Shown: positions 3,640 through 62,100 of the stretch, piece by piece
Layout: each line of letters starts with the position of its first letter
Position numbering within the stretch: position 1 is the first letter of the stretch
Assembly: GCA_021432655.1 (NCBI GenBank)
Contig: MU271328.1
Span: 1-64,000, forward strand
DNA length: 64,000 bases
Source of the DNA: Atractiella rhizophila
Lineage: Eukaryota
Direction: 5' to 3'
Made by a program: the position numbers and the translations under genes
Notes under the pieces: generated by a model
Database searches by the model: none
What the model saw: the letters and a program-made list of their open reading frames with translations, nothing else
Told to the model about the DNA's origin: nothing

Positions 3640-3770
3640 AAAATTTCACCATAACGCAGGAGATAAACTGTTTGCCCATTGGGTGGGCATAAAGGACATC
3701 ATGCCATTGTCCTGCCAAAATTTCACTATGAAATCAATTGCATTGAGTTTGTATGGGCCATGCAAAGCGA
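3640..3770 (+). pseudogene. Tc1-like DDE transposase C-terminal fragment
   Basis: Translation IVLPKFHYEINCIEFVWA resembles the fungal Tc1-like FLPKFHxELNxIExxW motif. Confidence 0.55.
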
Positions 3771-6700
3771 TATACATGTGATAAGCACATTGGGCTCTTG
3801 TTGTTTGTCGATTCTGACTTCCCTTTCATTGCGGAGTACTTTGGTGTTTGTATCGAGAGGGGTGGACACTGGCTCGGCATCTTGCAATCAGTATTTCGTG
3901 ATGATTTGGTCGATGTAGTGGGCTTGGGAAAGTGTAATGGTTCTGTCCTTGTGATTATGTGTGATTTGAATCCCAAGGAGTGGAACCCCTTCTCCCTGAT
4001 CTGTTGCATCGAATGTTTGTTGGATGGCCCTCGAACTTCTGCTATCTCATCGTCACCGTTTCCAACAATCATAAGGTCATCTACCGAAACATCAATGATA
4101 ACCATATTTCCTTCTCTCCTCCTCACGTAAACACAGTAGTCTGCATTTGATCTCTTGAATCCGAGCTCCATTAGAGCTTTATTAAGACGAACATTCCAGA
4201 TTCGCCCTGACTGTTTCAGTCCGTAAAGTCCTTTGACAAGTTTGAAGACCTTTCTTGAGCCATCCTCGAAACCAGGAGGTTGCTTCATGTAGAGGTTAAG
4301 CTCCTCCTCTAAATCTCCATTCAGGTAAACTCCTACTACATCCATAAGATGTATCTTCCAGCCATTGGCTGCTGCAAGTGCAATGATTGCTTGCGAAGAC
4401 TCCATTCAAGTGGCTGGTGTGAATGTTTCATTGAAATCTTGCCCAGGGATCTGACTGAATCCCCGTGCTACTAGTCTTGCTTTGTAGCGCTTTAATCTTC
4501 CTTCCTCATCTCTCTTTCGACGAAAAACCCACTTAGATCCAATTGCTCTGCGATCCTTCGGTAACTTCACCAAACTTCTTTCCCAGGTTCCATACTTCTC
4601 TAACTGCTTAATTTCCTCATTCATAGCTTCTTTCCAACTCTCAAATTCGTTGGATTGTATTGCTTCCTCATAACTAGTGGGGTCATCGTTTGAGGTGATC
4701 AAAGTTGTGAAAGCAAATGCAAAGTTGGCAGCCGCTTCTGCTGGGGGTAAGTTTGATGGTTCTGGTGCAGTCAATGACGAAGTAGTTTGTTTTGTTCGAG
4801 GTTTAGGTCGTGCTTTGCCGTAGTGTAAGGTATAGTAGTCTACTTCAGGCCTTGCTCGTTTTCCTAATCCCGATGCATAGGTCTCATTTCCCGGTCTCAG
4901 GACTTCGGTTTGAGTCTCTGGTTTGGAAGTTTGGAGTGATATTGTTTCTGCAGGGTTTTCTGCTATTGGTGTGTCCTTGTCTTTGCTTTCTACATTTGAG
5001 GGAGCAGGGTCCATGTTGATTTCAACTTCTTTTGGTTCTACTTCAAGGAAGATGTAGTTTCATGACACAAGCATCTTTCCATTTTTTGGATTGTAGTACC
5101 GGGTTGCCTTTGGCGCATTTTCATATCCTACCAAGATTACTCTAACTGACTTTGGGTCTAGTTTGGACCATTTGTTTCTTTCATCAAGGACCCACATGTC
5201 TGTTCCAAACTCTTGAAGATGCTCAATTGTTGGTCTCTGGGTGGTCCATGCTTGGTGTGGTGTTTCGTCCTTTAAGGCTCGTGTGATAGAGCGATTTCTA
5301 AGGTAAGCAGCATGTTCCACTGCTTCTGCCCACAGTGTAGGACTGGCCCATGCAAGTTCAATTAGAGTACGGTTCATGCATTCCGCCACTCCGAGCTGTT
5401 GATGTGAGTGTGGTGCTATGAGTTCTAGCTTTATTCCTTTCTCTCTTTCTAGCCAGTCTTTGATTTTTCGTTTAGGTATTCTGTTCCCCTATCGACTCGA
5501 ATGCGCTTTGGGGTACGCTCGTACTTTCGTTCGCATGCGCTGGAGCGCTTGTTCTTTCATTGCTATGAAGAGGACCGTTGTGTGGTGTACAGTCATCCGT
5601 AAATGAGATATAGTATTTGGATCCACCATAGGAGGGAACACGAGAAGGTCCCCATACGTCAGAGTAAGTAAGTTCACCGGGTATTTCTGACCTCGTTGAC
5701 GCTTCGCAGGGATAGGCTTCATGTGCCGGCTTTGCTTGGATACAGGCTTCACCTTGCGAAGGTGGGCTCGTTTCATCCACCATCATGCCATCAACTAATC
5801 CCTTCTTGTAGTTCTTCCAGCATTTTCGGGTCGATATGGCCAAATGCATGGCGCCATTCATCCCACGTTCTTGCTGGTTTCTCTGCTACGGCCATCACCT
5901 TTTCACCCCCTCGTTCCATACTTTGTAGTAAGTACAGATTTCTTTTCTTAGTTCCTTCTCCTAGCAACTGATATTCTTGTTGAACAGTTGCACCTTTCCT
6001 CCCCTGAAGACGGCCTTGCCACCTGCGTTGTCAAGTCAACTGATGGAGACGAGATTATTTGGTGCTGAAGGTGTGTAGAGGGTGTCTTTGAGGGTGTTAA
6101 TTATGATTTGGTTGCCGATTTTGATTGCCACCTTATAGGTTCCTCGCATGATAGCTTCAATGGGTGTCTGTGATAGGCTATGGATCTTGAAGTTTGAGAG
6201 AGCCCGGCATGTCTCTTCTATGAACCCATCACAATCGTTACTAATGTGCGAGGTAGTTCTAGAGTCAGCTAGCCATGTGGCCTTAGGAAGTGAACCGTCA
6301 AAATGGTCTTGCGCATGGTATGCGGAGTCAGCAAGGACATAGTTGATGTTTGGAGTTTCTGATGATTGTTATGCCTTTTCCTTCTTCCCTCGTCCACTTC
6401 TTGGTTTCTGGCCTTCCCTTCCTCCTCCCTTAGCCTAGCAGTCAGCCTTCATATGCCCATTCTTATGGCAGTTGAAGCACTCGATGTCAGACCTGTCTCT
6501 GCCATCTCCCATTTTCGGTTTTGCTGTCCTTTCCCTTTAGCAAATAGCGCTGTCTCTAGCGCTCCTGACTTCTCCTTCCTCCGCCTCTCCTCTTCAATCA
6601 GTAGTGCTGATAGCTTGTGCGATGACAAGGTCGGTTTGTTCGAATACGCTCCGAAATATGCGGATGTGAAAGTGTCCCACGATTCCAGCAACGACATGAT

Positions 6701-12800: not shown

Positions 12801-14703
12801 AGTGACGAAGAATGGGATTTGTGTCTGGAAGATGCAAACGCAATCAAACGAGGATCAGCAATTCGTTCTCTTTTTGTCTACATTTTGGTCTTTGGAGTTG
12901 CAAGCGAACCATTACAACTGTTTCGAAGACACTATGACAAGCTCAATGACGATTGTGCACATCTTCTGCAAACAGTTTATGGAATCGCTGCACCTTCTGA
13001 AGACCAGATCCGAGACTTATGCCTTATTGAGCTAGAGGACCTGCTACATGGTCTAGGCAAGACACTAGAGGAGTATAGGTTGCCGTTTACCTGCTCACAG
13101 GTTTGCACGATGGGGTGGAGAGACAAGAATAATTGGAGAAGAGCTGGCGTACAACATTATGGAGTTAGAGCAACGTCTTGATAGGGATCTTCCTCTTATG
13201 AATGAGGATCAACGACACACATACGATACAATCATCGAAGCCTGGCAGAATGGCACCGGAGGACTCTTCTTTCTTGATGGGCCTGGAGGAACTGGAAAGA
13301 CTTTTGTTCAGAATCTTATACTGGCAAGAGTAAGGTCATCCAAGAAGATTGTACTAGCATTAGCCTCTTCTGGGAATTGCTGCTATTCTGCTTGAAGGTG
13401 GTCGTACTGCTCATACGCGATTCAAGATTCCCCTCAATGCAGATGCACAATCAGTTTGTGGTATTTCCGCTCAAAGTGATCATGGAAGGCTATATGTCAA
13501 GGCAGAAATTATCCTGTGGGATGAAGCCATTATGAGTGATCGCCTCTCCGTCAGCTGTGTGGATCAGCTGGGACAGGACCTTAAAAAGGATTCAAGACCA
13601 TTTGGAGGAACACTTATGGTTTTCTGTGGTATGATACTTCCCTTTAAGTAGTTCTTTATTAACATACTGTTTACAGGAGATGGCAGACAGTGTCTTCCGG
13701 TAGTGCCAAATGGAAGCCGAGCTCAGATTGTGGATGCCTGCATCATTAATTCTTACTTCTGATTCTTACTTCTGGCCGAATGTTCAAGTCCTGCCTTTGA
13801 AAACCAATATGCGCCTTCTTCACGGCCAACAGGAAATGACACCAGCCGAATTTCAGCTTGCGACCCAGATTTGCCCAGTGGCTCCTTGATGTTGGAAATG
13901 GTCTCACTGATAATCCATCAGACAATGGATGTGGAGCCTTAACGATACCAGATGGGTCTATTATTCGATCCCATGAAGGACTAGATGGTCTGTTGCGCTT
14001 AATTTACGGACAACTAGGTTCTCTGCCAAATATCCCTGCTCTGAGCTTCCTTCAAGAATACTTCCGGGTTCGTATGATTCTAGCAGCAAAGAATGTGGAT
14101 GTGGATGGCATCAACGATCGCTTGATTCAGTGGCTCGAATCCACAGGAGATCGGGTATATTATAGTGCAGATCAAATTATAGGTGACGAGGGAGATCTCA
14201 GAAATCGCTTCTCTGTCGAGTACCTGAATACCCTGGAGATCTCTGGATTCCCTTCACATCGTTTACACCTCAAGATCGGTGCACCCATAATTCTTCTGCG
14301 AAATCTCAATCCATCTGCTGGCCTGTGCAATGGCACACACCTCATAGTCACTCAGCTTCTCCGGCGAGCCATCGAAGCAACCATCATTACAGGTGCACAC
14401 AGTGGCGAATCAGTTCTCATTCCTCGAATCGGCATTGACAGTGTAGTATCAAACCAGCTTCCTTTTCAATTCCGGCGCTTTCAATTCCCTGTGTGCTTAG
14501 CATTTGCCTTAACTCTGAATAAAGCGGAAGGACAATCTGTTGGACATGTGGGTTTGTACTTAGAGTCTTCTCCTTTCTCTCATGGGCAGCTTTATGTTGG
14601 TCTTTCATGGGTTTCAAATGCGAACAATTTACGAGTATTGGTCAAAACAAAGCAAGGAGAGGAAAACAAGCAAACAGATAATGTAGTTTACAAAGAAGTG
14701 TTA
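9830..14703 (+). mobile_element. Helitron Rep/PIF1-helicase pseudogene (Helitron 1)
   Basis: CCLHGKVLLP; Rep motifs FTTFTCNP, VIEFQKRGLPHSHIL, KYIFKYVYKG; helicase motifs DGPGGTGKT, LCNGT, QFPVCLAFALTLNKAEGQS, FSHGQLYVGLS and the terminal NVVYKEVL. Contains introns, stops and frameshifts. Confidence 0.95.
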
Positions 14704-15002
14704 CGGAGAAGAGGGGACTGCCAGCGGTATTTGTGTTCCTTCCACTCCGACAGGATCATGTTGTTGGAAAGGTTCTGATTCAAGTGCATATTTGAATGTT
14801 TGAACGGACCCTCCAGTCGCTTGGGTATTTTTGATATCTTCGGTTAAGAGGTCCCGGAAGTCCTTAGTGGAGACGGAGTAGTGAGTTCGTAGGTAAGATG
14901 GTAGAGGATGATGTTAGAGATGTGCTGTAAGAGGAAGATGACATATTGCAATGACAGTGGCAGCTCGGTGGATCTCTCTGACTTTAGAGCCACCTTGGTC
15001 AC

Positions 15003-15352: not shown

Positions 15353-18300
15353 CCGCTTTGCTGCCGACCACTGCTTTGCAACCTCGTGAAGCCAATACCC
15401 TGATGATATGGAGGTGGACGCAACAAAGTTCAGACCCCCTCATTGTCAAAGATGTCAAAAAATCTGACACAAAGAGAAGGAATGCAAGATGTCCGTGAGC
15501 AAAGAGCAGAGAATATTTTGACACTTGTCTTGTACAACAAGAACGAGGATCTACACACATTGCCGACCAGTCGCTGAAAACGAGCTTGACAGATCTGGAT
15601 GAGGATTTTTGAGACGGCAATGTGTGAAGGAGTGTCCCCATCGCCGACTCACAATTCATTTTCGTCAACTAAAATCACTTCCAACAAAGTGTCGCTTTGC
15701 GCAGATTTCCCTTCTCCTGAACATGACCCCCATTTCCAAAGTTGCATTTTCCCTCTTGGAGACAAAGATGTGCAGATGTTGCCAAAATTTATGACAAAGC
15801 TGATGGGCCACGGGAGCACTTGCGCCTCCTCCTTCCATCACGTTTGGTGTGTATTAAGGCTTTCTTTCATTTTTGCTCGCGCTTTCTTATTATTCAGCCT
15901 TCTTTGCTACAAGAAGAATTGCCCTGCAAGTGCGAGACCCACTGCTTGTTTCGGTCTCGCACCTTGCAGTCCAATACGTCGCCACACACTCTTAATCTCA
16001 TCACCCCCTCATGTTCAACAACCGTATCCCTTGTCAGCTCAAAACGAAACTCAGAACTGCGTTTCATCATCCACATTCCCATCATTGACATTGCCACATC
16101 GGCACTTGTTGACAGCAGGGGAACCACTTCCTTTATTTCCCAAAACATTTCTGCATAAAACCTACCCATCACTCAACTCCCTTCCTCAGTGCCTGTTTAC
16201 AATATCGACAGATTCTCAATGAGGGAGGTTCCATCTATTCTGTCGCTTATTTACCCATTTCTACAGTGCTCATCACGAAGTTTGGCAATTTGTGGTGGCA
16301 GAGTTGGGGACGGTTGAGATGATTCTGGGTCAAGATTGGTTAAGATACCACAACCCAAAGATTAACTGGGTGTTAGGGAAAGTTGAGTTCTCTTGCTGCA
16401 CCACCAGTTGCAACGTGGTTGATGTGTCTACTACACGCAAACAATTTCCATCATTGTCTGCTTCAATACGAGTTGCCATGATGAAATCGCAGAAACTAGC
16501 AAAAGACGCAGCGGCGATGGGACTAAAAAATGTTGTCGAAATACCAGCACAAATCACTGACTTTGCAGACATTTTTGACAACGAAAAATTCAAAACTTCA
16601 CTTCCTCTCCGGTGACCTTGGGACCATGCCATCAGCCTCAAACCAGAAGCTCGACCACATACTGGTCCTGTCTACCCTTGAAGAGAGATGAATGAGCAGT
16701 GCTTGACCAATTCATCGATGTGGAACTGAGCACCGGTCGTATACGTCCCAGCACAGGAGCTCACGGCACTTCCATTTTTTTTATGCACAAAGAGGACTCA
16801 CCTGAACTTCATCCCTTTTTGACTATCACAAGTTGAATGAAGCCACAGCCAAAGACAAAACATCACTCCCCATCCAAGCTGACCTCTTGTCCATGGTCTT
16901 TGCTGAGAAATTCCCCAGCAAGATTGACCTGAGGAAAGGTTTCAACAATTTGCACATCAAAGATTGAGCAAACATAATCACACAAATTGTGGACCTTTCT
17001 GACTGTTGTTAACGTATTTTGGACTCTGCAACTCACCAGCGACTTCTCAGGCATTCCTGAACTCTATTTTCGCCCAGTGATCGCTGCTGTGTTTATCTTC
17101 ATATACATTGCCGATATCCCGATTGTGACAGAGACTGAAGAGGAACACTGGGAACGTATTCAACAAGTTTGTCAAATTTCACGCAAAAAGGACGTTATGC
17201 AAATTTGCCGAAATGTGTTTGGTGTCAAGATAAGGTGGAATATCTAGGTTTGATCATTTCCAGCAGAGGGATCAAACCAGATCCAGTACAAGTCACAGAA
17301 GTGATGGATTGGCCAGAACCGAAAAACATGAAGGAAGTCCAAATGTTCCTCGGTTTCACTAATTTCTATCGCCGTTTTGCAACAGATTCGGTCACATCGC
17401 ACGACCCTTATATGAACTGATAAAAATGGAGGTTTCCTGGGTCTGGGGGTAGATCAGCAACGTTCGTTCGCCACTTTGAAACAGCTCATGACTTCGACGC
17501 CCGTTTTGGCACATCCCAAACAAATAGGACGATTTTTGCTTGAAGTTGACGTGTCAAATTTCGCGACAGGCGCTGTTTTGTCGCAAATGAAGTCAGATGA
17601 CAAGTTTCACCGTCTCGGTTTCATGTCAAAATCGCTCAATGCTGCCCAGAGAAACTATGACACATATGACAAAGAAATGCTCGTGATTATGCGTGGGCTG
17701 CAAGAATGGAGACATCTTCTTCAGGGTACCGATGAGCCATTTCTGATCTTCACCAATCACAAAAATCTTGAGTTTTTCAGAATGCCACAAAAGTTGAATC
17801 GGCGACAAGCGGGCTGGATCACTGAACTTGCATCTTTCAACTTCGCTCTTTTACACCGTCCTGGACGAAACTCCGCAAAACCAGATGCGCTCAGTCGGCG
17901 ACCGGATCACAAACCGGTGACTTGCGACAACTTCGATGTAGTATTACTCCCAGAACGTTTTTTCAACACGGATCGTATCACCATTAACACGACTGGGAGC
18001 GCGGTTGCGCTCACAAGACAAATGTCGGAGTTGAGCATACTGGAGCACGTGAAAAAGATGCCTGAACGGGAAGAACAGGTGCTCAAAGCCTTGAGAGAGA
18101 TCCTGGATGAACCAGTCTACTCCATTCACCGACGGGAATGGCAAGAAGTCGACGGTGCTGTTTATTTTCGCGGAAAACTGTACATTCCCCGATTGATTTT
18201 GTAAGACCTCCACGATTTGCAAATCACCAGTTATCCAGGTGTAAAATCGACGACAGCTCTCGTAAAAAGGTACTACTCGTGGCCAAGTTTGGCGCATTAC

Positions 18301-28022: not shown

Positions 28023-28086
28023 TAGTATTGGACCCTGGTTCCTTCCTCAATGTTGTCGGAACAATGACTCGCTGCGGGGTCCTCCC

Positions 28087-28387
28087 CTCCTTGAACAAGA
28101 ATGAGGGGAGCTGGCCATATATCCAGCACTGGAATAGGCTGGACGGGTTGCGATGTGCCAGCGGAGAGATCGTGGGTCAAATTGGGAAGCTGGAGACTAG
28201 GATCAACAGGAGGGTCTGTACAAGGAGGAAAATCTTAGTTGACATGTTACGGAGTGGTAATATCAGGAGGGGCGGAGGTGTCATGGTGAACAGCGCCATG
28301 TTGAGGAGGAGAGTAAGTGCGGATTGGCAGGAAGAGGAGGAGGAGGAGGGAAATCGTGATCGTTTCGTGCAGGCTGAGCGGCTTGAT
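28087..28387 (+). repeat. ~300-bp dispersed direct repeat of 30262-30568
   Basis: Long shared blocks, e.g. GGAGCTGGCCATATATCCAGCACTGGAATAGGCTGGAC and GAAATCGTGATCGTTTCGTGCAGGCTGAGCGGCTTGAT. Confidence 0.9.
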
Positions 28388-29970: not shown

Positions 29971-31349
29971 TTATTGTATGCCTAATATCCCATAAGACAT
30001 CGCTAGCCAAAAGGCTAGGCTTACCTGATACTGCAGCATTTTCTTCCAATGCTCCGCTTTCCAACCATTGTCCTTTGCCATCTTTTTGGCTTCTTCAATC
30101 TGCAACGGCATATCCATCATGTCCAACAGAGGCCGTAGCTTCTCCACATCCTCATGCAGCTTTGTAATTTCCTCCGGAGGCAGGGAGGCTTCAGTGTCTT
30201 TAACTTTCTTCTTGGCTCTTCCTCTCTTTTTCTTGCTAGTGCTGACTTCATTCACCTCCTTTCCTCGAACAAGAACGAGTGGAGCTGGCCATATATCCAG
30301 CACTGGAATAGGCTGGACAGGTTGCGATGTACCAGCAGAGTGATTGTGGGTCAAATTGGGAAGCTGGAGACTAGGAGACTAGGATCAACAGGAGGGGCTG
30401 AACAAGGAGGAAAATCTTGGTTGACATGTTGCGGAGTGGTGATGTCACAAGGGGGGGAGGTGCCATGGTGAACAGCGCCAAGTTGAGGAGGAGAGAAGTG
30501 GGGATTGGCAGGAGGAGGAGGAGGAGGAGGGAAATCGTGATCGTTTCGTGCAGGCTGAGCGGCTTGATTGGCAGGCCAGAAGCCATGCTGAGCAGGAGCG
30601 AGAGTGGTGTGGTCCGCACTGTGGTCGTGTGAAGGAGATAGATCGTAATTACCGGAAGTGGATGGTATTTCACTTTGGAGACCCTTCTCCTCGATTGTCT
30701 TGTTCGGAGTGGTAGGTGTTCCTTCATCTAGATTCTTTGCTTGCAACGCCTTTGAATATTCTCCTCGTACCATGCTGTTCCTGAGATCTTCCGCCAAGCG
30801 CACATCCTTCCCCTGAATCGGCAAGCCTCATGAGATTAGCAAACAGCCTTACATTCAGGGCATTGCTGCCACTTCCTGCCAGCCAGCTTCAACCACACTC
30901 TCTGCTAACCTTCTGAGGCAGCTAAAGTCCAAGAGGAGAGGCATCACCTCTATGGAATCAGGGTGTGCCTGCTTCCATCTCTTGCACAAGGGTTGTGCGA
31001 CCTTTGCACCTCTTAGCAAGGCCTGCAACAGTTCTGCAATCGCCTTTCGAGAACCCACATTCTCCCACCTCTTCAAGCGGAACAGCATCTCTTGTCTAAG
31101 GCTGTTATGACCAAGCGTATCCCCCCGAGGATTGTTCTGCAGGTCTGAGGTGTAGCAATCTTCATCTGCATCGGTTGGAAGGTGGATGTCGGGTTCTGCA
31201 GACAGTACAGCTGTGAGAAGACGCTTTGTAGCTAATTCGGCAACACTTCTGCTGGTCTGGCGATTGACATGGTCGAGTGGTAGTACACCATCTTCAACGA
31301 ATGCGGTAAGTATATTGAGGTTGATGACAATATCGCTGTTTGTGACCAT
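29971..31349 (-). pseudogene. Hypothetical, probably TE-borne multi-exon ORF, disrupted
   Basis: Three adjacent co-oriented ORFs (164, 157, 127 aa). An 8-bp duplication at 30366-30381 shifts the frame between the last two. Confidence 0.45.
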
Positions 31350-32829
31350 CGCTTTGAGCGAATCTAATCCTTATGTTAGTACCAAGTGTCTTGGTAGAAA
31401 TATTATGCCTAGGGTTGGCACAATGCTAACATGGGCAGAGGCAGAATGTTTGCACCTCTCGTCCTGTCTCATCATCTTCCCTCTGTGTAGGTTGGGAGGA
31501 AGGTCACGCTGCATAGAAACCTTCAATGTCTCATAATTCGAGAAGCTAAGAAACAAACCATAGCCCTGGTCTTCTTTACGCCCTTCGACATTAACATGCC
31601 TGTTCCTATCGTACCAACACCTTCCCGACTTTCTACGATAGACATAGGCACATACCTTCATGATGAATGTTACGCATATTATCAACATGATTTCTTTTTT
31701 GGATTCAATCCGCCAACTCCCTCACTTTCCCCCTTCCTCTTCAATCCTCTCTTGACTATTCGGCCCACTTCATCCTCTACCCCCCCATTCGGCTCGTCCT
31801 CATTGTCACAGGTGCTTCCGCTAGTGTTCCTCAGAACTGATGTTACAAAAACACGGCTCATCCAGTCTGTCTTGCCAAGACAGAGAACTGTGCTGTAATC
31901 TGCCTCGAGTTTGTGTAGGATGTTTGGGAGATAAGTTGTTTTGCAGAGACCAGTCTGATTCTTGATCGATTTTGTTGTGTCAAGGTAGGATTTGGCGTAC
32001 AGACTGGCTTCGCTTCGTGTCACATCAGCAGTTGCACGAGGTAGTGGTAACGCCCCGATGACTGTGTCATCCGCTTCGTCAATGATAAGCTGGTGCAATA
32101 CCTGAACAGGATTGAGAATATTGTTCTGAAGGCCGGATCGTGTTGAGGCAGTAGCTTGCTTTCGTTCTCAGAAAACCCCAAGCTCCTCAGCATCTTCCTG
32201 ACCGATTATTGACCTATATGCTTTAAGGGTTTTTTGATCCAATCGTCTCCTGAAAATTCGTTGTGGGAATCGACTGGCTGTAACGCAATGCGATCCATTG
32301 ATGTTGGGTTCGTTGGTTTCGCAGACAGATGTGCCTTCCTGACTTTGTCGAGTTGAAGCTTCAATCGATCGACCTCTTCATCCTTCTCCATAAAGAATTT
32401 TTCCACTTATCTTTATCCATCCTCTCCCTCTCCAATGCAGTCTCTAGCTCAAATATCTTCATCTCTAGCTCTTGCACGTAAGGGTTCAGGCGGAGGTCAC
32501 ATCTTGTGGCATTCTGGATATCAGTCATAAAGGAGTGATCCGATTGCGACATCTTCGCTATTGGAGGAAAAGCCAGGAAGTCTTGAAGCATGGGAGAGGA
32601 GAGGGCGCAGATGAAATGAGGCAGACAAGAGAGTTCAAGCAAAAAGATGGCTTCTTCATTGTCGTCGTTTGTGCCGGAATGAAACTGTGTTGATCCGACC
32701 TAGCACATGCAGATATCTGCACCAGAAGAAAGGAATGCATCAGAGTTTCATCAGCAAAACACGGTGAGAGCTGCAACAGACCTTTTCCAAGCTGTTCTAT
32801 GCCAATCCACCAGTATTGTTATGCTAAGC

Positions 32830-33035
32830 TGTTGTAAATCGACGGGCTGAGGAGCGGAGCTAAGTACGACTTGGTTACGTTTGGCTGAGCTCTTGCAAAC
32901 GCATGAGCACCAGGAAATGGAATTCTATGTGTTTATATAGCTTACAGCAGTGGCAACTAGAAAATAGTAGAACATTCCAGAAAACTAAAGAACTTTGCCA
33001 CTGAGTGGCACGAAACTAGACTGCAAAATGCAACA
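32830..33035 (-). repeat. 3' LTR of the gag-only element
   Basis: Direct repeat of 34261-34466, 205/206 identical by eye. Confidence 0.95.
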
Positions 33036-33361
33036 CTTCCGCCCAGGCTTGTGGAGTGCCAGGAGGTAATCAATAGAAAGTAAAGTTAATCGATAAGGTC
33101 ATTTAAAAGGTAAACAAGGGTCAATTCAATTTTCAACAAGGGGATCTCAAACTTTAATAGTTCATCAAAACTTCCGCCGATTTCTTGCTTCTGCCAGCTT
33201 CAAGGCACATCAATACGAGGTCATAGCTGTCCCATGATGCTTCACCAGCGATGAAAGATCTTCTTCCTACGCCTGAAGATGATACACGGCCTTCATTCGC
33301 CAAATTTCACCAGATCTTGAGACCATTCAACTATTACTCCCCTCAATCTTCTTTTCTTCTT

Positions 33362-34192
33362 TTAAAAAGCTGCATCTATCAAGGCTTCATTGATAGCTAG
33401 GTGTGTACTCTCCTGTGGCTTCGCTTTTCTGTCGCAATCTCGAGCAATGTGAGTGGGATTGCCACATATCCAACAAGCTCGTGAGGTACCGTTATTCTGG
33501 GATTCTGAATATCGTTCAAATCTTCGACTATTCTCCCTCTGTTGTTCCTTCCTTCCCCATTTAGGCGCTGCTCTAGCCATTGCAGCTATCTCTATCTCTC
33601 CTGGTATTCCACCTCTTCTCCTCTCTTCATCCCTGAGTGCTGAAACGACTTCATCAATTGTCTGCTCCCCTTTCGTGGCCATGAGCGTGCTGGCGAGGCT
33701 TCCCCATGTTTCTGCAAGGTTGAATGTCAGGACATCCGTAATATCTTGGTCTGACAGGGTTAGGCCGATTGATTTCATTTTTGATGCTGATTCAAGGACG
33801 TGGGAGATGAATTGTTCAATGGGGGCGCTGAAATCATGCTTTGTCGTGTAAAATGCGCGTTTCAAGGTGATTCTGTTCGCTTTTGAGGATTTCTCATACT
33901 TCTCCTTCAGGGCTTTCCATGCTTCTGGACCAGTAGTGCTGCTTCGAACATACATGAACTGCGATGGATCGAGGCTGAGTCCAATTATTGTAAGTGAGTC
34001 TTCAAGCTGTCTCTTCGTTTCATCGGATGCAGTCCTTGTCTGGACACCATCTGTCGTGCTTGTAAGGATATCCCAGCAATTGCATTTCTTCAGGACGAGG
34101 GTAACAGCAAATTTCCAGTCTGCATAGTTCGTTCCATCGAGCTTTGGAATTTCGCGGATGAGTGAATGAATTCCAACAGTGTGGGTCGACAT
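33362..34192 (-). CDS. gag: Copia-type Gag (276 aa) with CCHC zinc knuckle
   Basis: Uninterrupted ORF with IPKLDGTNYADWKF, AWKALKEKYE and CWICGNPTHIARDC. The ATG lies in a GCCAGCCATG context. Confidence 0.92.
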   Translation of the reverse strand: MSTHTVGIHSLIREIPKLDGTNYADWKFAVTLVLKKCNCWDILTSTTDGVQTRTASDETKRQLEDSLTIIGLSLDPSQFMYVRSSTTGPEAWKALKEKYEKSSKANRITLKRAFYTTKHDFSAPIEQFISHVLESASKMKSIGLTLSDQDITDVLTFNLAETWGSLASTLMATKGEQTIDEVVSALRDEERRRGGIPGEIEIAAMARAAPKWGRKEQQRENSRRFERYSESQNNGTSRACWICGNPTHIARDCDRKAKPQESTHLAINEALIDAAF

Positions 34193-34251
34193 GGCTGGCG
34201 CGTGGGTCGTACAGATCCGCTCTTCTGGACTGGTGACGGTGGTCTAACCGG

Positions 34252-34260
34252 ATGCGTTTG
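34252..34260 (-). promoter_or_regulatory. Putative self-priming primer-binding site
   Basis: CAAACGCAT immediately follows the 5' LTR on the minus strand. It is complementary to ATGCGTTTG at 34335-34327, which starts 35 nt after the first T of TATATAAA (34370-34363). Confidence 0.7.
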
Positions 34261-34466
34261 TGTTGTAAATCGACGGGCTGAGGAGCGGAGCTAAGTACGA
34301 CTTGGTTACGTTTGGCTGAGCTCTTGCAAACGCATGAGCACCAGGAAATGGAATTCTATGTGTTTATATAGCTTACAGCAGTGGCAACTAGAAAATAGTA
34401 GAACATTCCAGAAAACTAAAGAACTTTGCCACTGAGTGGCACGAAACTAGACTGCAAAATCCAACA
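34261..34466 (-). repeat. 5' LTR of the gag-only element
   Basis: Direct repeat of 32830-33035, with TATATAAA on the minus strand. Confidence 0.95.
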
Positions 34467-35449
34467 TAAGCTTTGATCCTTTCCTCTAAAAGCCATCCGT
34501 TCTTGGCATGAGTCATAAAACGCACTTTTGAGCCTTTATTCCTCCCTCACCAGGCCCATTGAGACGAAATGAATTACACCATCTGACTGCATATGCTTGC
34601 GCCTTTCTAAAGCTGCGAGGAAATTTTATTCTGAAGGGGTAAAAAATTTGTTTCAACTGGACTCGAACCCTCACAAGAGTCACAGTAGGGTTCAAGGGGC
34701 CATGCCCCTCGTGAGTGGGTTGGGGGGCCTGAGGGACGAAGGCCTCTGACACACTTGTTTCTTCCTAATTATCCTCCTATGCAACCTTTCGATGAGAACT
34801 AGCTCTTCCAGCTCCATTCCAGCTCCCCATCCAGGACTTCACAAGTACAATCAAAAACGCATAAGAGAATGTTCATCCCCATATCCTTTGATTTGATCTC
34901 GAGCTAAGAAGAAGCAGGAGGCACGGGATGGTCAACGTTCAGAAACACGTGCTGCTTTACGCGTTGACGCAATCATGACATCCCATGTCTCATTGAAGAA
35001 CAGTCTTTGTCTGGATCCTTGGCCACCACGGGGACTTCCTTATGCCTCTAAAGTCCAACTCAAGGTCCAACAACAACATCCAGCGCCGCCAGAAGAGTCA
35101 GACTCTCAACATTTCCAGCCTGAAATAACGCACTGTTCTCCTAAAGACTTTGACACCGTGCCAGTACTGGCTCTTGATCGGGAAGAAGATTTAGAGATGG
35201 GAGATTGTGCTGGAGAGATATTTGTCGAAGAGAGGGTGGAGCTGAGAGAGGAGGTTGAAGTTAATGTATCCACCGCCGAAGACGAGGAGGAGGCTTACCA
35301 CAACCCAAATCCTGACAATGCTACCCGACCTGTGGCCCTTGGAGGTATGAGAGTTAGAGTTACACAGGCAACCGCACTGTCGTAAGTCTACTTGCAGGTC
35401 GATAGAAATGGCGCTGAAATGTAGTCTTTCATTGCAGTGAGATTCGCGA

Positions 35450-42863: not shown

Positions 42864-45448
42864 TACTTCCTCTCTCTCTCTACTTGGCTCGACGGCGTCT
42901 ACGTAACTTCCTCTACGCCTTTCCCCTACCGCCCTTGCCTTTCTGATCCTCAGTCTCCTTCTCCTCTCTTCCCCTTCCTATTCTTCTTTTTCGCCTTCTC
43001 ATGACGACAACTTTGTCATCTCCACTCACTAAGAAAACGACGGAACTGAGACACCGAGTTCCCTATGGCAACGTCCACACATGCCTACTTCTTTTAAGTT
43101 GACACTTACTTCTCTGTTTACCTCTGCCTTTTGCCTTCCATACGATACACGGACACGAGAAGATGGGTGGACCACGACTACGGTACTGTGACACACGTCT
43201 CTTAGCCTCAGCATGCTCCCTTTTCGTTGGTAGTTTAAAACGATGCTCCGATAAGTTCTAGGAAGATTTGAACGGTTCTGGTCAGAGAGCGAATCGAAGC
43301 CACTACCACGTTTCGAGGTCGGACCGCTGGCGCAAAAGGCTACGGTGTTTACGTTCGCTGAGGAGGCAGTTTGTGGCCGTGTTTTCATGTTGATACTGCC
43401 AGAGTAGTCCGTGACCAGGTCGGTACCAAGACGAATGGTCTAGACGAAGTGCGTGGAAACACTTCAATTTGGGCCACTTGGGAAGTTGCTCGAACTAAAT
43501 AGGAAACGCTTTCCCTTGTACTGAGGGCCTCTGATGTCAGCCCTCTCCCCTGAGTTGTGGGGATAAGGACGTACCCGCGTTGGCTTCGTTCAACAGAGCT
43601 TCTACTGAGCGTTTCCTCTAGTCCGTACGTGGGTAGACGAATTAGGTACGGCTCTTCCGACTAGGCTATAAACAAAACCTTTGTCCGCCAGCTGGGTCTT
43701 GCCGACTTCATAGAATAGAGGTCTACCTGACGTAGGAGACGAGTTAGCAAGTGCCTTCAACTGACAGGGCTTTTGAAGCACTGAACGAGTGTATATAAGT
43801 GCCATGAGGTGCGAGTTAAGGCTCGAGAACCTGGTAGGTTTCTTGTCGAGAGCTTACACGTCGAGTGGAGTGGCGTTTAGAAAGGAAGAAAAAGTTCCAT
43901 ACACGAAAGACAAAAACTCTGTGTGGAGACTCGTGCCCTACTATCCTGGTTTAACCACTACCGCTCTAGCGTGACAGATAACTGTCAACCTGTAGCTCGT
44001 TAGAGTAGCGAAAAGTACGTTAGACACGTGTGAAGCAACTATTCCTTCCTGTGGAAACAATTACGAGACGACCTAAAACAACTCGACTTCCCTTTTGTAA
44101 ACCCCCTCTCTTACCGTTTTCACCAGATGCCTCACGAGTTCTTCGTACCTAACAACCCTTTCCATCGGAAAAGACTATAGGTGACACTTACAACGACTTA
44201 TTAGAACGAAAATCTAGAGCTAATATTACAGCCTATTACGCTGAAGTTTACTATACTACTACCGGTACGACCTCCTAGAGAAGTTACGACTGTTGTAGCT
44301 AAAGGGGCATTTGCTTGCTGCTCCGTCTACAGAGGGGGGTAGTAGGTAGAACGGCGGAACAGAGACAACTTACGTGAGCCACGTACCGGTCGTAGGTGTT
44401 TTCGACCGGCGCTGCAGTGAGGGTTCTTGGGAGGGCTCAGGTCACCGTAAGGAGGAGTTCAAAGGCTACTATTTGTTGTTTGGGGGAGGAGAACAAGGGT
44501 AGCTACTGCTGCTACTTAGGCGTAACGGCATAGTCACAGTCGAGCGTTGGGACGAAATTACGTCTACCCTGACAAAAGCACCTTCTTCTAGGGTTTGACC
44601 TACTTTACTACCTACCTTACCCTAACCCACTGTTGTATTGCAGTCTGTACTTACGACTACAACCTTGCCGATAGGTCGCCCATTCAAAGGAGAACGAAAG
44701 AGGGACAAATTGTAACTTGACTACCTAACTGTCGAGGCTCGCTAGTATTTTACACGAGCGAGTAGTGGCGTCTTCTTCCTCTACACCAAGTTCGAGGAGC
44801 CAGGGGGTGGAATCAGCTCTCACTTCTCAGGCTTTTTCAAGAATAGGAACTGCAAGTTTGCGCCACCAGGAGTTGAACGTCGTACGACGTCGCGCGCGAA
44901 GAGAAAGCGAGGCGGCAGCTGGTGAAACGAGTTATAATGAGGGTTCTAGACTTTCCACACGCCAACTCACTCCTTCTGACCCTACGTTAGTTCGAGCAGA
45001 ATAGCACCAACCTCCTCAAACGGCTTCATTGACGAGAATACAGAAGCCGGAGGCTACAGTGGTAGTCGTCGCAACAAGACGATAAGGAGTCGAATAAACT
45101 TTTCAACCTTCTCCGGAAACGGAGAGACGGTGAGGCCTGAGGCTTTTTCCATTTCCTACCCGAGAGGTTCCGTGTAGTTTTCAACCGTTTCATAATACTA
45201 TTTAGACTACGAAAGGGCATGATGAAAACCCGATAAACACTCGAGATAGAAAGAAGGGTGTAAGAAGAGTAGGCCGACGTATACAGACAAACGACTAAAC
45301 CTACCTCCCTTATCATGAGCTGGGATTACGACCAGGACGTTGAAACCTCCTAGGCGCAATGCGAAAGCTAGGGAAGACCCACCTCGTACGGTTCCTGTTG
45401 GACTTCTCCTTCAAGCTGTCGCTGATGCCGGTGAATTGGGGTGGTGAG
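42864..45448. other. Mirror-image (reversed, not complemented) core of the hAT transposase gene
   Basis: The base-by-base complement read left to right gives a BED finger (CHKC...HWSSH), SIDSWTSSN, SDNATSN, RCLP-IIHLAA, RSSPQ, LILDVQTRWSST, KLAKYY and LDP, separated by canonical introns. Confidence 0.95.
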
Positions 45449-45978
45449 NNNNNNNNNNNNNNNNNNNNNNNNNNNNNNNNNNNNNNNNNNNNNNNNNNNN
45501 NNNNNNNNNNNNNNNNNNNNNNNNNNNNNNNNNNNNNNNNNNNNNNNNNNNNNNNNNNNNNNNNNNNNNNNNNNNNNNNNNNNNNNNNNNNNNNNNNNNN
45601 NNNNNNNNNNNNNNNNNNNNNNNNNNNNNNNNNNNNNNNNNNNNNNNNNNNNNNNNNNNNNNNNNNNNNNNNNNNNNNNNNNNNNNNNNNNNNNNNNNNN
45701 NNNNNNNNNNNNNNNNNNNNNNNNNNNNNNNNNNNNNNNNNNNNNNNNNNNNNNNNNNNNNNNNNNNNNNNNNNNNNNNNNNNNNNNNNNNNNNNNNNNN
45801 NNNNNNNNNNNNNNNNNNNNNNNNNNNNNNNNNNNNNNNNNNNNNNNNNNNNNNNNNNNNNNNNNNNNNNNNNNNNNNNNNNNNNNNNNNNNNNNNNNNN
45901 NNNNNNNNNNNNNNNNNNNNNNNNNNNNNNNNNNNNNNNNNNNNNNNNNNNNNNNNNNNNNNNNNNNNNNNNNNNNNN
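45449..45978. other. Assembly gap (530 N)
   Basis: Run of N. Confidence 1.
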
Positions 45979-48477
45979 GCCCGAATGCTTTTACGAATGT
46001 TGGGATTATTTTCTGCCATTTTTCTGATTGAGGAAAGCTTGAAAAGGCAGGCTGCTTTTATACAGGAGAGTTGCAAAAGCAGCAAGACTTTGACAGTAAC
46101 TTTTGGGTCTCTGGCTCCAAGACCATCATGCAGCGGCAGTACCCATGATGGACCCTCATGTCCTCAAAGAACCAAAGGACTCACCTCACAAACCATTGCC
46201 AGCACAATGCTAACGAACATGAACCGTCGTGAATCGTGGTGATTGCAATGGAAGGGAACGTTGATGGTGGCGCAGTATGGAAGAATCAAGGTAACTGAGG
46301 CCACTCCAAGTACAGGATGAAAGAACTTCGTCGCTTGCTTCATGACAATGTTGGAGCTCTGTTGCAATGACTGGAATCAGGATGGAAGGCTGGATGGTGG
46401 ATGCATGGAATGCTTTGCACAAAGACCCGGAACGGGAACACGAACTACTCACGGACACGGAAACTCAGCCCATTTCACCTCCTCTCTACTTTCACCTTTC
46501 GACCGTCTCACCCGTTAAAACCGTTCCAGAACAGGCTCCAGGAAGGGACGGACGGGACAATCCCGTCAACAACCCCGTCCGTCATCAACAGAAAGCAAGC
46601 TGTGACGGTGACGGGACGGGGGGGCCAAAAAAGCCGTCCGTCCCGGACCCGTCAGCCGCATTGACGGTGACGGTGCAAAGCCCTAATCGTTGACAAGGGT
46701 CACAAGGCTCCGAAATTTCTGGTGACATCCAAGTTAACGGGTTTCTATTAAGATCGGATTTCTGCAGGGTCTCTCTGACAGTCTCGACTCAGAGCTGGTA
46801 TGGCGTTTGTTTAAGCACCTCCGTTGATATCAAATATTATGCTGTGGAACCAGCGTCGTTTCACAGATTGTCCATAGATTGTTCAAATCCATCATGACAA
46901 CCCTGCATCGATACAGTTGTCACTCTCGTTCTTATCTTTGAGGAGCTACTGGCGGTACAGAACTTCTGCTAATCTCACCTGTATGCATCAGTCCATCAGG
47001 TTTGCATCCTGTTTACATCGTGTTCAGTCGACTGTCGCGTGACCTTGAGTTTCGGACAAAAACTCCTGAATATTATAGGAGGATCACAAGACTGCCATTC
47101 TCTATATTAGAGCTCCTCTCAGCTTTCTCTCGTGGAGTTTCGCGAATGTTTCAATGTCTCAGATCCAATTCACACATTCCCGACCTAAGTCGAAGCTAAA
47201 ATTTGTTGTAATCGCGGAAAGAGGGGCGCCAATGGGATATAAAAGTCTCGTGCCTCTCGACGTCTTTTCTCTTTTCCCCAGCCTGGTGCAACCATTAAAA
47301 AGATCTCTCGATTTCCCCCTTCTCTTCGACAGAGTAGCAGCTCCTTCGTGCCCTCCTTCAAGGCTTATTGGTCTTTTGATGCGTCTCACTGCCTGTTCCC
47401 TGCCATAGATGATAAACTGATGAGCTCGATGTCTAACAACTCTTGTGCTTGCCCTTTCTATTTTCTTGCGACCTCGATTCCTCCTTTATCCGCAGAGCGG
47501 ATAGACGAAATCACGACCCTTTTGCACATCGAATCGAGACTTTCGAAGTGGTTGACTTGCTAATACCACCATGGCTGGAACTATTCAGAACCTCCGCCTC
47601 CTCTCCCTCTTCGCTTCTTCTGCATTTGGGGCGGCTCTGCCAACTTCTTCCGACTCCGACGAGCAAGGGCCTCCTGTCGAAGCGAAGCCTCCGAATTTGA
47701 TACCGCAGCATCACAACCGCAAGTTGGGTTCCATTCCGAAGGCCTGACTTGACTACACCTCAAATCAGAAACCGACGATGCCAGCTGTCGTACCGGCACA
47801 TCAGTTGAAGAAGTTCGTCTCCCGTGTTCCTTACTGCGCTAGGTTTCCTCACTAATCAGGTTGGTACCCACGGGCGCCACCACCACGATTTCGTTATCCC
47901 AGCTGCGCTGCCTCTGGCCGTGCATGACCCCGAAGTTTATGGCTCATATATTGGCCAGGAATGCCGCAGCATCTACTACGATCCGCATCGCAGGTCTATC
48001 TCTCTCTCCCGCTCTTCAAGGTCGATATGGAAAGCTAAGCTAAACGGCGTTGTAGTCAACCCTGGAACAACCATCACGGTTTTACGAACTACGACGGTGC
48101 GACCTACTTCCCAGACCCGGTTGTGCATGGAAAGTGGGTCTTGCTCTTCCCCGCTCTCCATTCGTTCATTCGATCCGATGCATGTTGTCGCGGGGCAGGT
48201 GCGAACTGAATCGAATCGAGCGCCGTTCCAAGCATCGTGGATCGAACCTTCAGCTGAAAGCAGGAGCCCACATAAGTCCGAATCGAAGAAACCGCTGAGC
48301 ATGGGAAGAAGGAGAAGCCCTCTCGACTACAACACCAAGACGATGGCGTGTTGATGTTGGTGTCAATGTGCCGCCAGTCAGGCCTGGCATCCATACGAAA
48401 GCGCGTCGCGACGGACCTCGAGAACTGGCGACTACTGGAATTCCTGGATTTGTGGAAATTGCTGCCCCTGTTCCTTG

Positions 48478-59185: not shown

Positions 59186-62100
59186 TTAATCCCTATCTAC
59201 ATCCAAACCCAGTTTATGAACAATGAAGCAGTCACCAAACCACGGTCTAGGAATTACAGCAACAACTTCCTTGATATCTTCCACGGAAATGACAGTGAGG
59301 GAACCTTCAACACCCGGCTTGCAGCTCAGAATAACAGAGTGGATGTCGTGCTGCTCGTAATCGCCGTACGGTCGAATCAGTGCCAGGTGATGTACGCTCG
59401 AAGCCAGTGAAACTTCCAAGAAAAAGCATACCTCACCATATTGCATTTCAATTCGCGTGGGCCCCATTGTTCCAAGCCAGGGTACAGTTCGTTGTAGATA
59501 CATAATATTCCGACTGATGCGTACTTCATTGATAGGCCGCTCGAGCTCTTTCCATTGTGTGCGAACTCTCTCGCCGTTAGGAAGTTGCAGGCGCCCATTT
59601 CGTAAACCTTCCGTCCCACGTCAATGCGATCTCCCCATGGATTCGCTGTAGAAAAGCAGATACAACCGTCTTTTCTATGTCACTGCAAATCGAACTTACA
59701 GAAGCTCGCAACAAAGCATATGAATTTCTCAGATCTAAAGCTCCTCGAGGCAGGGTACGAAGTGCGCGTTTCTTCATGAGCGTAGGGTCGATTGATCGTA
59801 AAGCTTGACATTGAGCTTGCTGGATGCATTGTCTAGACAGATTTTGGTACGGCCGTGAAGGCTGTCGAAGTCGTGATCCTAAAATGCCGATCGTTCGTTC
59901 GAGAGTCCACTGAGTGACGTAGATGAAAGGCCCAACTCTTCGTGTCTGGGCAACAAGATAAAGAAATTTATGCAGTGAAATTCTGCAAAAGTTGATCCGA
60001 TGGATGTCCCTCTGATAATACAATTTTTCAAACTCTTCCACAAACTCAATAATGAGATTTTCAACATGATTGAGCTCAGTTTGCGAAATCTGCCGCTTTC
60101 GAAGGATCCGGACACAATAGACAATCTTGAGGTAATGTGAGAAGTAAGGCTCAGGGATATATCCTTCGAGGAGCCCAGGACCAAGGCCATAAAAGTATGT
60201 TTCCCATTCTTTAGCCTTATAATCCGAATACTTGATGTCAATGTTGCGAAGGAATTTATCCCAAGATGAGGGGATATGAATTCGGGTGTTTGCAACCTCG
60301 ATTCCATGCTGCTCCCACAATGGCCCAATTGAGAGCTTCCCAGGGCATCCGATCTTCAGCAGGAATGGGAACGGGAGCTGCTGCAATCTGACTACGCTTT
60401 CTCTTCCCCAATCCACTTCGTTTCTTGTTTGTAGGATAAATTGTTCCATGCCAGAGACCAAGCATAAGTTCAGGAAAGTTCAGGTTCGGATGATGCATTC
60501 CATCGACAACAAAACAGAAGGGGGGGCCGTTTCCAAATGTGGAAATTTCTGCAAAGGGGGTGTCACGGACAATTCCATACTGTCTTTGGAGAGCTGCTGC
60601 CTTACGATTTTGACCAGCACGTCTTGCCGTTTGAATTTCTTCAAGGCGGGCTCGATATTCTTCAGCAGTCTCTGTGGGAAGGTTTCGGGGATCATAATCT
60701 GGTCGCTCAAATTCAGATTCTTGATAGTCGAGCGGCCACAGGAGAGTAAAATAATAGATTGGAGCGCCAGGTTGATGCACTCCAATTAAAGCACAGCCAT
60801 TGATGTGGCTTCCGCGACGGCCAGTGTGGCCAACCTCCCCTCCCATCTCACTTGCACAGATTGTATCAAACAGGCCCAGGGCAATGAAAGGACGGGAGCC
60901 AAACCAGATATTAAACTCGGACTCATGGATTAGATAGCCTTTGACTGAAAACTGCTTGACCCATTGAAAGATGGGATGAAGAAAGGAATTTTGATCCCAA
61001 GGCTTGTTTGGGCCAGGGATAATTGCAATGGGCATGACATATTGCTGCTTGTATCGAATTTCCGGCGGGAGATTGTAATCGATCATAATGACAAAGATAG
61101 CATCGGAAGGCTTCTTGTTGTTGAAAACTTGCGCTCCATCAAGAGAAAAGGCAAGAACGGTATCGGAAGGTAAGATTTTCTTTTCACGAGCAAGCTTGAG
61201 GTAATCTGAACCACAATAGATATCGTCGAGGATATCAGGTAGCATCCCATCTTGGGGACACTTTTCGAGAAGGTCCTTCATCCGTCTGGCCCTATGCTTT
61301 GAAGCAGATGCTCCTTCTTCGGTGGCCCAGCGAGCCTGGAGGGGAGCTTCAAATGGAACCACGAAATACTGTTGTCTAGGAACCTTCTTCTTGCGCTTGC
61401 CTCCTGGTTTTGACATCGCTTCTCGATAGCGTGATAGGTGACATTTTGGGCATTCCATGAATTCAGACCATTCACCAGTATATGTAATGCAAGAGTTCGG
61501 ACACATGTCAAATGCCTCTGGCATTATATGACTTTTCTCCTTGATGCAACGCTTTATTCGATCGAGGGAAAGTGTGCTTGTCTTGAATCGCTCCTCCACC
61601 CAGGCACAAAGATCCTCATACAAGTCTCCAGCAGCACGTCCGTGGCAAATCATGAAAAGCTCAAGGGAGATAATTTGTTCGTGAGTTAATGGAGTATACT
61701 CATATTTCTCTTCCTCCATGACATTATGAACTTGTCTGTCAGAATCTTGGGTTGTTATCTGTTCACAAGAGAGACAACGAAGTTGTTCATCAGCCAACAA
61801 GAGATTTGCACCCAGCTCGTCCACTATTGAAGGTCAGTATGATAATATTCCTAATATCAGTACTTACGCTCATGATTTTCCCTATTTGCTCACTGTTTTC
61901 TTTTTCTCCATCACACTCCTCTTCCTCCTCTTCCTCCCCTTCTTCCTCATCCTCTTCATCTTTCTCCTGCTCATTCTCGCTTAAATCATCTTGGGGTTCC
62001 TCTTCTCCTGGTTCTCCAACTATTGGACGTGCCAATCGGTCTCGCACAAGTCGACGATGTTCAACCCGCTCAAGCTCGTTCAGAATAGTTTGGATCGGGT

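Follow-up and report, generated by a model that had tools for sequence, protein, structure and literature searches.

A gag-only LTR retrotransposon of Copia ancestry with a primer binding site complementary to its own predicted transcript start

How an LTR retrotransposon whose primer binding site (PBS) has no TGG starts minus-strand DNA synthesis is the question raised by an element on the minus strand of the window (the whole 64,000-nucleotide stretch of DNA analysed). A first-pass annotation had proposed self-priming in the manner of Tf1 by an element with a Copia-type Gag. The present analysis establishes the anatomy of the element, the complementarity between its PBS and a site inside its LTR, the covariation of these two sites across relatives, and the clade structure of those relatives, and it makes it probable that this non-autonomous, gag-only LTR retrotransposon of Copia ancestry primes minus-strand DNA with its own 5' end. 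The self-priming reading is well supported by the covariation.

Anatomy and relatives of a gag-only element

The element, delimited by repeat search and by reading of the sequence, has a total length of 1,637 bp. Its 5' LTR (TGTTGG...ACAACA, 34261-34466, 206 nt) and 3' LTR (32830-33035, 206 nt) form a direct repeat, identical at 205 of 206 positions with the sole mismatch, found by reading, at LTR position 6, and the target-site duplication GCTTA was read on either side (upstream copy 34467-34471, downstream copy 32825-32829). The TG..CA LTR ends and the 5-bp duplication are traits that are not exclusive to Copia. A polypurine tract, GGGCGGAAG (33036-33044), stands immediately before the 3' LTR, at the same place as GGGGGAG in relatives. 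The Gag gene (33362-34192, minus strand, 276 amino acids, with a CCHC zinc knuckle) is the only open reading frame of at least 60 amino acids on the element strand and is followed on its 3' side by a non-coding stretch of 326 nt. The element encodes no protease, integrase or reverse transcriptase, and the Copia Pol order PR-IN-RT/RNase H is absent from it, there being no pol at all; it is therefore a non-autonomous derivative that can be filed by its Gag and LTR features only. The window element is a recently inserted, non-autonomous, gag-only LTR element, a nature that the first-pass annotation had missed.

Judged by its protein profile, the Gag is of Copia type and of Copia stock: it matches Pfam Retrotran_gag_2 ('gag-polypeptide of LTR copia-type', 5.4e-26) in addition to zf-CCHC, and its distant Gag relatives form the N-terminus of polyproteins in Copia order. 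The Copia-type Gag named in the first-pass annotation is thereby borne out, and grouping of the Gag with Ty3/Gypsy, which it had listed as a point against its proposal, is not seen, the Gag being of Copia type and the sister elements carrying a half-tRNA-iMet PBS. Nor is the window element a Ty3/Gypsy chromovirus Gag-Pol of the Tf1/sushi group, given its Copia-type Gag and missing pol.

The nearest Gag proteins, 38-51% identical over the aligned part, are also short, and those that are named all come from Agaricomycetes (Agrocybe, Ephemerocybe and Trametes). A Gag profile search returned proteins of 167-294 amino acids in 29 of its 35 best rows, and its longer matches include polyproteins of about 1300 amino acids with the Copia order gag-PR-IN-RVT_2. 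The Gags of two such Gag-Pol proteins were compared with the window Gag and are 25% and 32% identical to it, and with these as the nearest Gag-Pol Gags the profile search found no close autonomous partner. A word-based search, which is weak evidence on this point, returned no longer proteins, and no Gag relatives were found among viral contigs. A scan of metagenome contigs with the Gag alignment yielded 15 loci, several of them circularly assembled units of 1,086-1,566 nt that comprise one LTR and a gag-only interior; circular gag-only units of such similar size indicate that gag-only elements constitute a family and not a one-off deletion. At two of the loci (L006, 1-2260 and 4210-5490; L007, 3990-4873) the gag-only element is flanked by long arrays of tandem repeats of about 87 nt.

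In public sequencing runs of DNA type, the LTR is joined to many different flanks and the depth of the element is much higher than that of the flank, as expected of a multi-copy mobile family. With LTRs identical at 205 of 206 positions, varied flanks and raised depth, the family looks mobile. Two other public runs, X1 and X6, each contain one contig that joins 34172 to 33468 across a 7-nt microhomology, dropping 703 nt (most of gag); this joint represents a gag-less, TRIM-like deletion derivative of the window element.

Complementarity and covariation of the two sites

The candidate PBS, CAAACGCAT (34252-34260), lies directly 3' of U5, adjoins the LTR end ...ACAACA at 34261 and contains no TGG. 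Its exact complement, ATGCGTTTG, lies inside the LTR at 34327-34335, where it is the predicted first 9 nt of the transcript (the start of R) and the proposed self-primer. The TATA box TATATAAA is located in U3 of the 5' LTR (34363-34370), with a TATA at the same spacing in the relatives L001, L002 and L004, and the 9-mer starts 35 nt past the first T of this box and is preceded by TC, giving a C-to-A step. The first-pass annotation had described a 9-nt PBS without TGG, its perfect complement within the LTR, and the placement of that complement at a TCA site 35 nt after the TATA start, and each of these was confirmed from the sequence. It had also drawn a bipartite stem between U5 (GTCGTAC..TCCGCTC, 34283-34301) and the leader (GAGCGGA..GTACGAC, 34206-34222); the arms GTCGTAC (34301-34295) and GTACGAC (34212-34206), and TCCGCTC (34289-34283) and GAGCGGA (34222-34216), all lie where it had placed them, and RNAfold predicts the stem in both the minimum free energy (MFE) and the centroid structures.

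The pairing recurs with other sequences at the same two places in three relatives. The self-primer ATGCGTTTG of the window element, 35 nt from its TATA start, has the PBS CAAACGCAT; the corresponding self-primers and PBSs are ATCGGTTTG(T) and (A)CAAACCGAT in L001 (offset 33 nt), ATCGAGTTG(T) and (A)CAACTCGAT in L002 (34 nt), and ATCGGTTAT and (A)TAACCGAT in L004 (34 nt). The PBS of each of the four has no mismatch with its own LTR site and 2-4 mismatches with the sites of the other three, and by reading of the strings two-sided changes were counted at six of the nine duplex positions (3, 4, 5, 6, 8 and 9) with no unpaired cells. These counts come from our own script and from reading of the strings, since MAFFT alignments put the 9-mers and PBSs out of register, and they reflect few independent events, L001, L002 and L004 being close kin. 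The covariation that the first-pass annotation had named as a check is thus found as a perfect duplex of 9-10 nt with compensatory changes in all four CAAAC/TAAC-type elements. An LTR-complementary sequence 3' of the 5' LTR, with no tRNA 3'-end PBS, which is the trait of self-priming elements, is accordingly present, extending over 9 bp in the window element and over 9-10 bp in the relatives L001, L002 and L004. The duplex ends at the U5 border or one base into U5 in all four elements. In all four the site follows the TATA start at a constant spacing (33-35 nt) and begins at a pyrimidine-A step, and its distance to the LTR end is variable (59-75 nt), as expected if the site marks the start of transcription.

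Among the relatives with an iMet-type PBS and readable LTRs, none of six has an LTR complement of at least 6 nt, the best being 4-5 nt. L006, L007 and L009 belong to the same Gag clade as the four self-pairing elements and are degraded; between their PBS region and the corresponding LTR position there are only six Watson-Crick pairs, along with wobbles, a pairing that for L006/L007 is not significant (reached in 372 of 2000 shuffles). No variants in the PBS or the 9-mer are among those listed for four sequencing runs mapped as contigs.

A solo LTR of a related family, with the target-site duplication TGAAT, lies at 54-237 on the plus strand and, in 90 aligned positions surrounding the TATA box and predicted start, is 79% identical to the element LTR. 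It contains TATATAAA and, at the equivalent site, ATGCATTTG in place of ATGCGTTTG, so that a one-base difference is predicted for the PBS of its family.

Chance complementarity in a dead element would account for a pairing that extends over only 9 bp in the window element, within a leader whose fold has a z-score of only -1.88, equally good folds being obtained by RNAfold in 5 of 200 shuffles. Shuffled LTRs of the window element gave a complement of at least 9 nt in only 6 of 2000 cases when the complement was allowed to start within -1 to +2 of the LTR end and the position of the LTR site was left free, and the complement lengths observed in the window element, L001, L002 and L004 were reached in 6, 1, 0 and 8 shuffles per 2000, respectively. 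Against the repetition of the pairing in three relatives, and with near-identical LTRs, an intact Gag open reading frame and a target-site duplication in the window element, coincidence is very improbable.

The predicted folds bear on what the pairing does. The duplex of the 5' end with the PBS has an energy of -11.7 kcal/mol in the window element, the MFE structure of which pairs the 5' 9-mer not with the PBS but with CAAACGTA (34307-34314, minus strand; 8 bp including one G.U), a competing local partner present in both the MFE and the centroid folds; forcing the 5'-end/PBS duplex into a nested fold costs 6.3 kcal/mol (-27.9 versus -34.2). The 5' end is paired with the PBS in the MFE structures of L001 and L002, and this duplex is not formed in that of L004. 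The U5-leader stem occurs in all four elements (GTCGTAC/GTACGAC in the window element, GTACCA/TGGTAC in L001, L002 and L004), and together with the 5'-end/PBS duplex it makes a pseudoknot, a structure beyond representation by the folding programs used. A hairpin in R/U5 with the loop CUAAC is kept in L001 (211-225), L002 (82-94) and L004 (268-280) on varying stems (GGGGC/GCCUC, GGGA/UCC and GGG/CCC, respectively); it has no clear counterpart in the window element.

A second, local partner for the 9-mer would suit a structural switch, and covariation attests selection for pairing and is silent on what the pairing does. The duplex could on these grounds be regulatory, serving PBS masking, RNA cyclisation, dimerisation or packaging, with another primer in use. 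This explanation is unlikely: the duplex ends in all four elements where the 3' end of a primer must sit, no other PBS candidate is visible downstream, and the same geometry is, in passages of PMC7175516 and PMC10085805, the experimentally established priming device of Tf1. Priming by the 5' end itself is the reading that we prefer.

PBS types in the sister elements

Eight relatives (L003, L005, L008, L010, L011, L013, L014 and L015) have a different PBS, CAACA followed directly by GGTTATGGGCCC. This string is the end of an antisense northern probe for human initiator tRNA-Met published in the relevant passage of PMC5238962, and on the basis of that match it is antisense to the anticodon stem-loop of initiator tRNA-Met. 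A half-tRNA PBS is known from copia and Ty5 (as cited in a passage of PMC10886601), and in plants the half-tRNA-iMet PBS is confined to Ty1/copia according to the part of Neumann et al. 2019 (PMC6317226) that deals with it.

In a maximum-likelihood tree of Gag (14 rows, L012 being too short and omitted; midpoint root; window branch long), the window element, L001, L002, L004 and L006/7/9 group together in a single clade supported at 98/99. The elements with the iMet PBS fall outside this self-pairing clade, the distant L014 included. The LTR terminus TGTTGG(AAT) and a GGGGGAG-type polypurine tract are common to both PBS types, which fits one kind of helper enzyme. It is possible, and we put it forward only tentatively as the simplest reading, that one gag-only family derived from Copia, with similar helper enzymes serving it throughout, switched once from half-tRNA-iMet priming to its own 5' end with its LTR termini and polypurine tract unchanged.

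The presence in the same Gag family of sisters with a PBS antisense to the tRNA-iMet anticodon stem-loop also gives substance to the proposal that the window element takes as its primer a fragment of a host tRNA (such as one produced by a cut in the anticodon loop, as for copia, Ty5 and several fungal Copia elements), the LTR 9-mer being coincidental or secondary, and fungal Copia families are reported, in a passage of PMC10886601, to employ anticodon loops from a number of different tRNAs. Among the four elements, however, the PBS varies at 2-4 of its 9 positions, the LTR site changing along with it each time, so that one conserved tRNA cannot fit all of them, and four different tRNAs would leave the matches to each element's own LTR at a fixed distance from TATA unexplained. 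The PBS has no TGG, and no tRNA-like match was found in the element: Rfam searched up to E = 10 gave four chance-level matches on the window element, none of them tRNA-like, ARAGORN predicted no tRNA in the window or in the 15 relative loci, and the iMet PBS string GGTTATGGGCC does not occur at the window element within 2 mismatches. Priming by a tRNA fragment is improbable on this evidence, and self-priming remains the preferred reading. A relic iMet PBS was considered in GGTTAGACCACC, downstream of the PBS, and rejected as unconvincing, only 7 of 12 positions matching the iMet string.

The nearest Gag relatives thus share their PBS type with the half-tRNA-primed Copia elements (Drosophila copia, yeast Ty5, plant Osser/Bryco/Bianca and fungal families). 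Half-tRNA priming and self-priming are alike in that the 3' end of the primer must come from the cutting of an RNA; unlike the half-tRNA-primed Copia elements, the window element and its clade have lost the iMet PBS and pair with their own 5' end. Should a single kind of helper reverse transcriptase/RNase H serve both, half-tRNA priming and self-priming would be two uses of one activity. That shared activity, if true, would be the cutting of an RNA:RNA duplex at the PBS edge, and the family would be a natural experiment linking both modes. Whether half-tRNA priming and self-priming share one cleavage step is a question raised by this family, as is how a helper enzyme cuts and extends a primer on the RNA of a parasite.

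Proposed priming mechanism, known systems and other content of the window

For the mechanism itself, we infer the start site, the cleavage, the enzyme acting in trans and the rewriting step. The transcript would begin with the A at 34335 or a base very close to it, some 35 nt past the TATA start, and its first 9 nt, AUGCGUUUG, would fold back onto CAAACGCAU, which adjoins U5, the PBS being held in a loop closed by the U5-leader stem. An RNase H-type cut after nucleotide 9 would generate a 3'-OH at the U5 border, from which a reverse transcriptase supplied in trans would extend the primer through U5 and R. Because the window element encodes no reverse transcriptase or RNase H, both cutting and extension would have to come in trans. 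If the primer is copied back into the plus strand as in Tf1, the PBS would be rewritten from the 5' end in each round of transposition, which would explain the perfect matching of both sites.

Four public runs that carry the element were compared as contigs, a form of data without power to show a start. Among contigs that carry the PBS region or the LTR's U5 end, those of X1 end at 34320 (two contigs, one of which runs into Illumina adapter) and those of X6 at 34323 and 34329(+2), the RNA nature of both runs being a guess. None of the listed pieces in the contigs of these two runs passes 34335. These contig ends, at 34320-34331, fall 4-15 nt downstream of the predicted +1 and are a weak hint of a 5' end near it; they are equally compatible with a start displaced by a few bases into the 9-mer or past it, and at face value they would put part or all of the 9-mer outside the RNA. 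Terminal bases are usually lost in library making. A branch of the k=31 graph at 34305 could mimic the limit at 34335. A restriction-library artefact was considered for the X1 end at 34320, where there is an AGCT site, and was rejected on finding that this site is read through in the 3' LTR by a further contig of X1.

To our knowledge, self-priming has experimental evidence only in the Tf1 group of Gypsy elements and is for Copia elements a prediction made in plants only. In Tf1, as described in passages of PMC7175516 and PMC10085805, the PBS is paired with the first 11 bases, the RNase H cut falls between bases 11 and 12, and a 'pretzel' is formed around the PBS by flanking duplexes. Like Tf1/Tf2 and the Tf1/sushi group in those passages, the window element has a PBS that adjoins the 5' LTR and complements the predicted transcript start without TGG, and, as in Tf1, an extra duplex joins the leader to LTR sequence downstream of the self-primer. 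The Tf1-like geometry proposed in the first-pass annotation therefore holds for a PBS next to U5 that pairs with the predicted transcript 5' end, with one flanking duplex evident. Unlike Tf1, the window element has a Gag of Copia and not Gypsy type, a duplex of 9-10 bp versus 11, one of the two flanking duplexes of the 'pretzel', and no reverse transcriptase/RNase H of its own. The 'pretzel' parts seen are the central duplex and one leader-LTR duplex; a second flanking duplex was not found in folds that ignore pseudoknots.

Self-priming of Copia elements is an idea already in print and is not categorically new; the sense of novelty in the first-pass annotation was too high, plant Ty1/copia self-priming having already been put forward for Houba and Osr-1 and predicted for the TAR lineage as a whole in the part of PMC6317226 that concerns them. 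Like the TAR lineage as characterised there, the window element is a Copia element whose LTR contains a site complementary to the region that follows the 5' LTR. The TAR elements, by contrast, are autonomous, found in plants and detected by a 10-bp criterion, and the elements described here are fungal-type and gag-only, pair over 9-10 bp and have no reverse transcriptase to compare phylogenetically. That criterion, in the corresponding passage of Neumann et al. 2019 (PMC6317226), is a complement of at least 10 bp starting 0-5 bp after the LTR; the complement of the window element is 9 bp, and L001 and L002 reach 10 bp only if the terminal LTR base is counted.

Among fungal Copia elements, a passage of PMC5445492 attributes to GalEa no classical PBS and a Conserved Hairpin Site, consisting of a palindrome and a hairpin and having no LTR complement, and to FunCo1 a PBS for an internal part of a tRNA. 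Like GalEa as portrayed in that passage, the window element lacks a classical PBS; unlike GalEa, it has no palindrome and has a clear LTR complement. No report of self-priming in fungal Copia or gag-only elements was found in the open-access full text that was searched. The family adds natural compensatory mutations, together with a sister group with a half-tRNA PBS that serves as a built-in control, and an element as small as about 1.6 kb could be marked and tested.

Transposon remains are abundant in the window. At 3734-5488 on the minus strand lies a degenerate reverse transcriptase of Copia type (Pfam RVT_2), interrupted by in-frame stops; the degenerate pol at 3734-5059 was considered as a helper and rejected, no usable LTRs or PBS being found around it. 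On the plus strand, an open reading frame at 13840-14778 has a Pif1 helicase 2B domain and is possibly Helitron-like, and another at 17416-18204 has Gypsy-type RT RNase H domains (RT_RNaseH_2). A pair of direct repeats (28081-28387 and 30255-30568), each about 310 nt long, 91-97% identical and about 2.18 kb apart, contains a GGA-rich run and possibly represents the LTRs of another small element. Transposase_21 (tnp2) and DUF4218 are matched weakly, below threshold, by open reading frames at 59577-61833 on the minus strand, which points to a DNA transposon of the CACTA/EnSpm-like type. The N content of the window is 530. The GC content falls to 0.356 at 44001-46000, which looks like low-complexity or repeat sequence, and long open reading frames overlap on both strands at 45313-46242.
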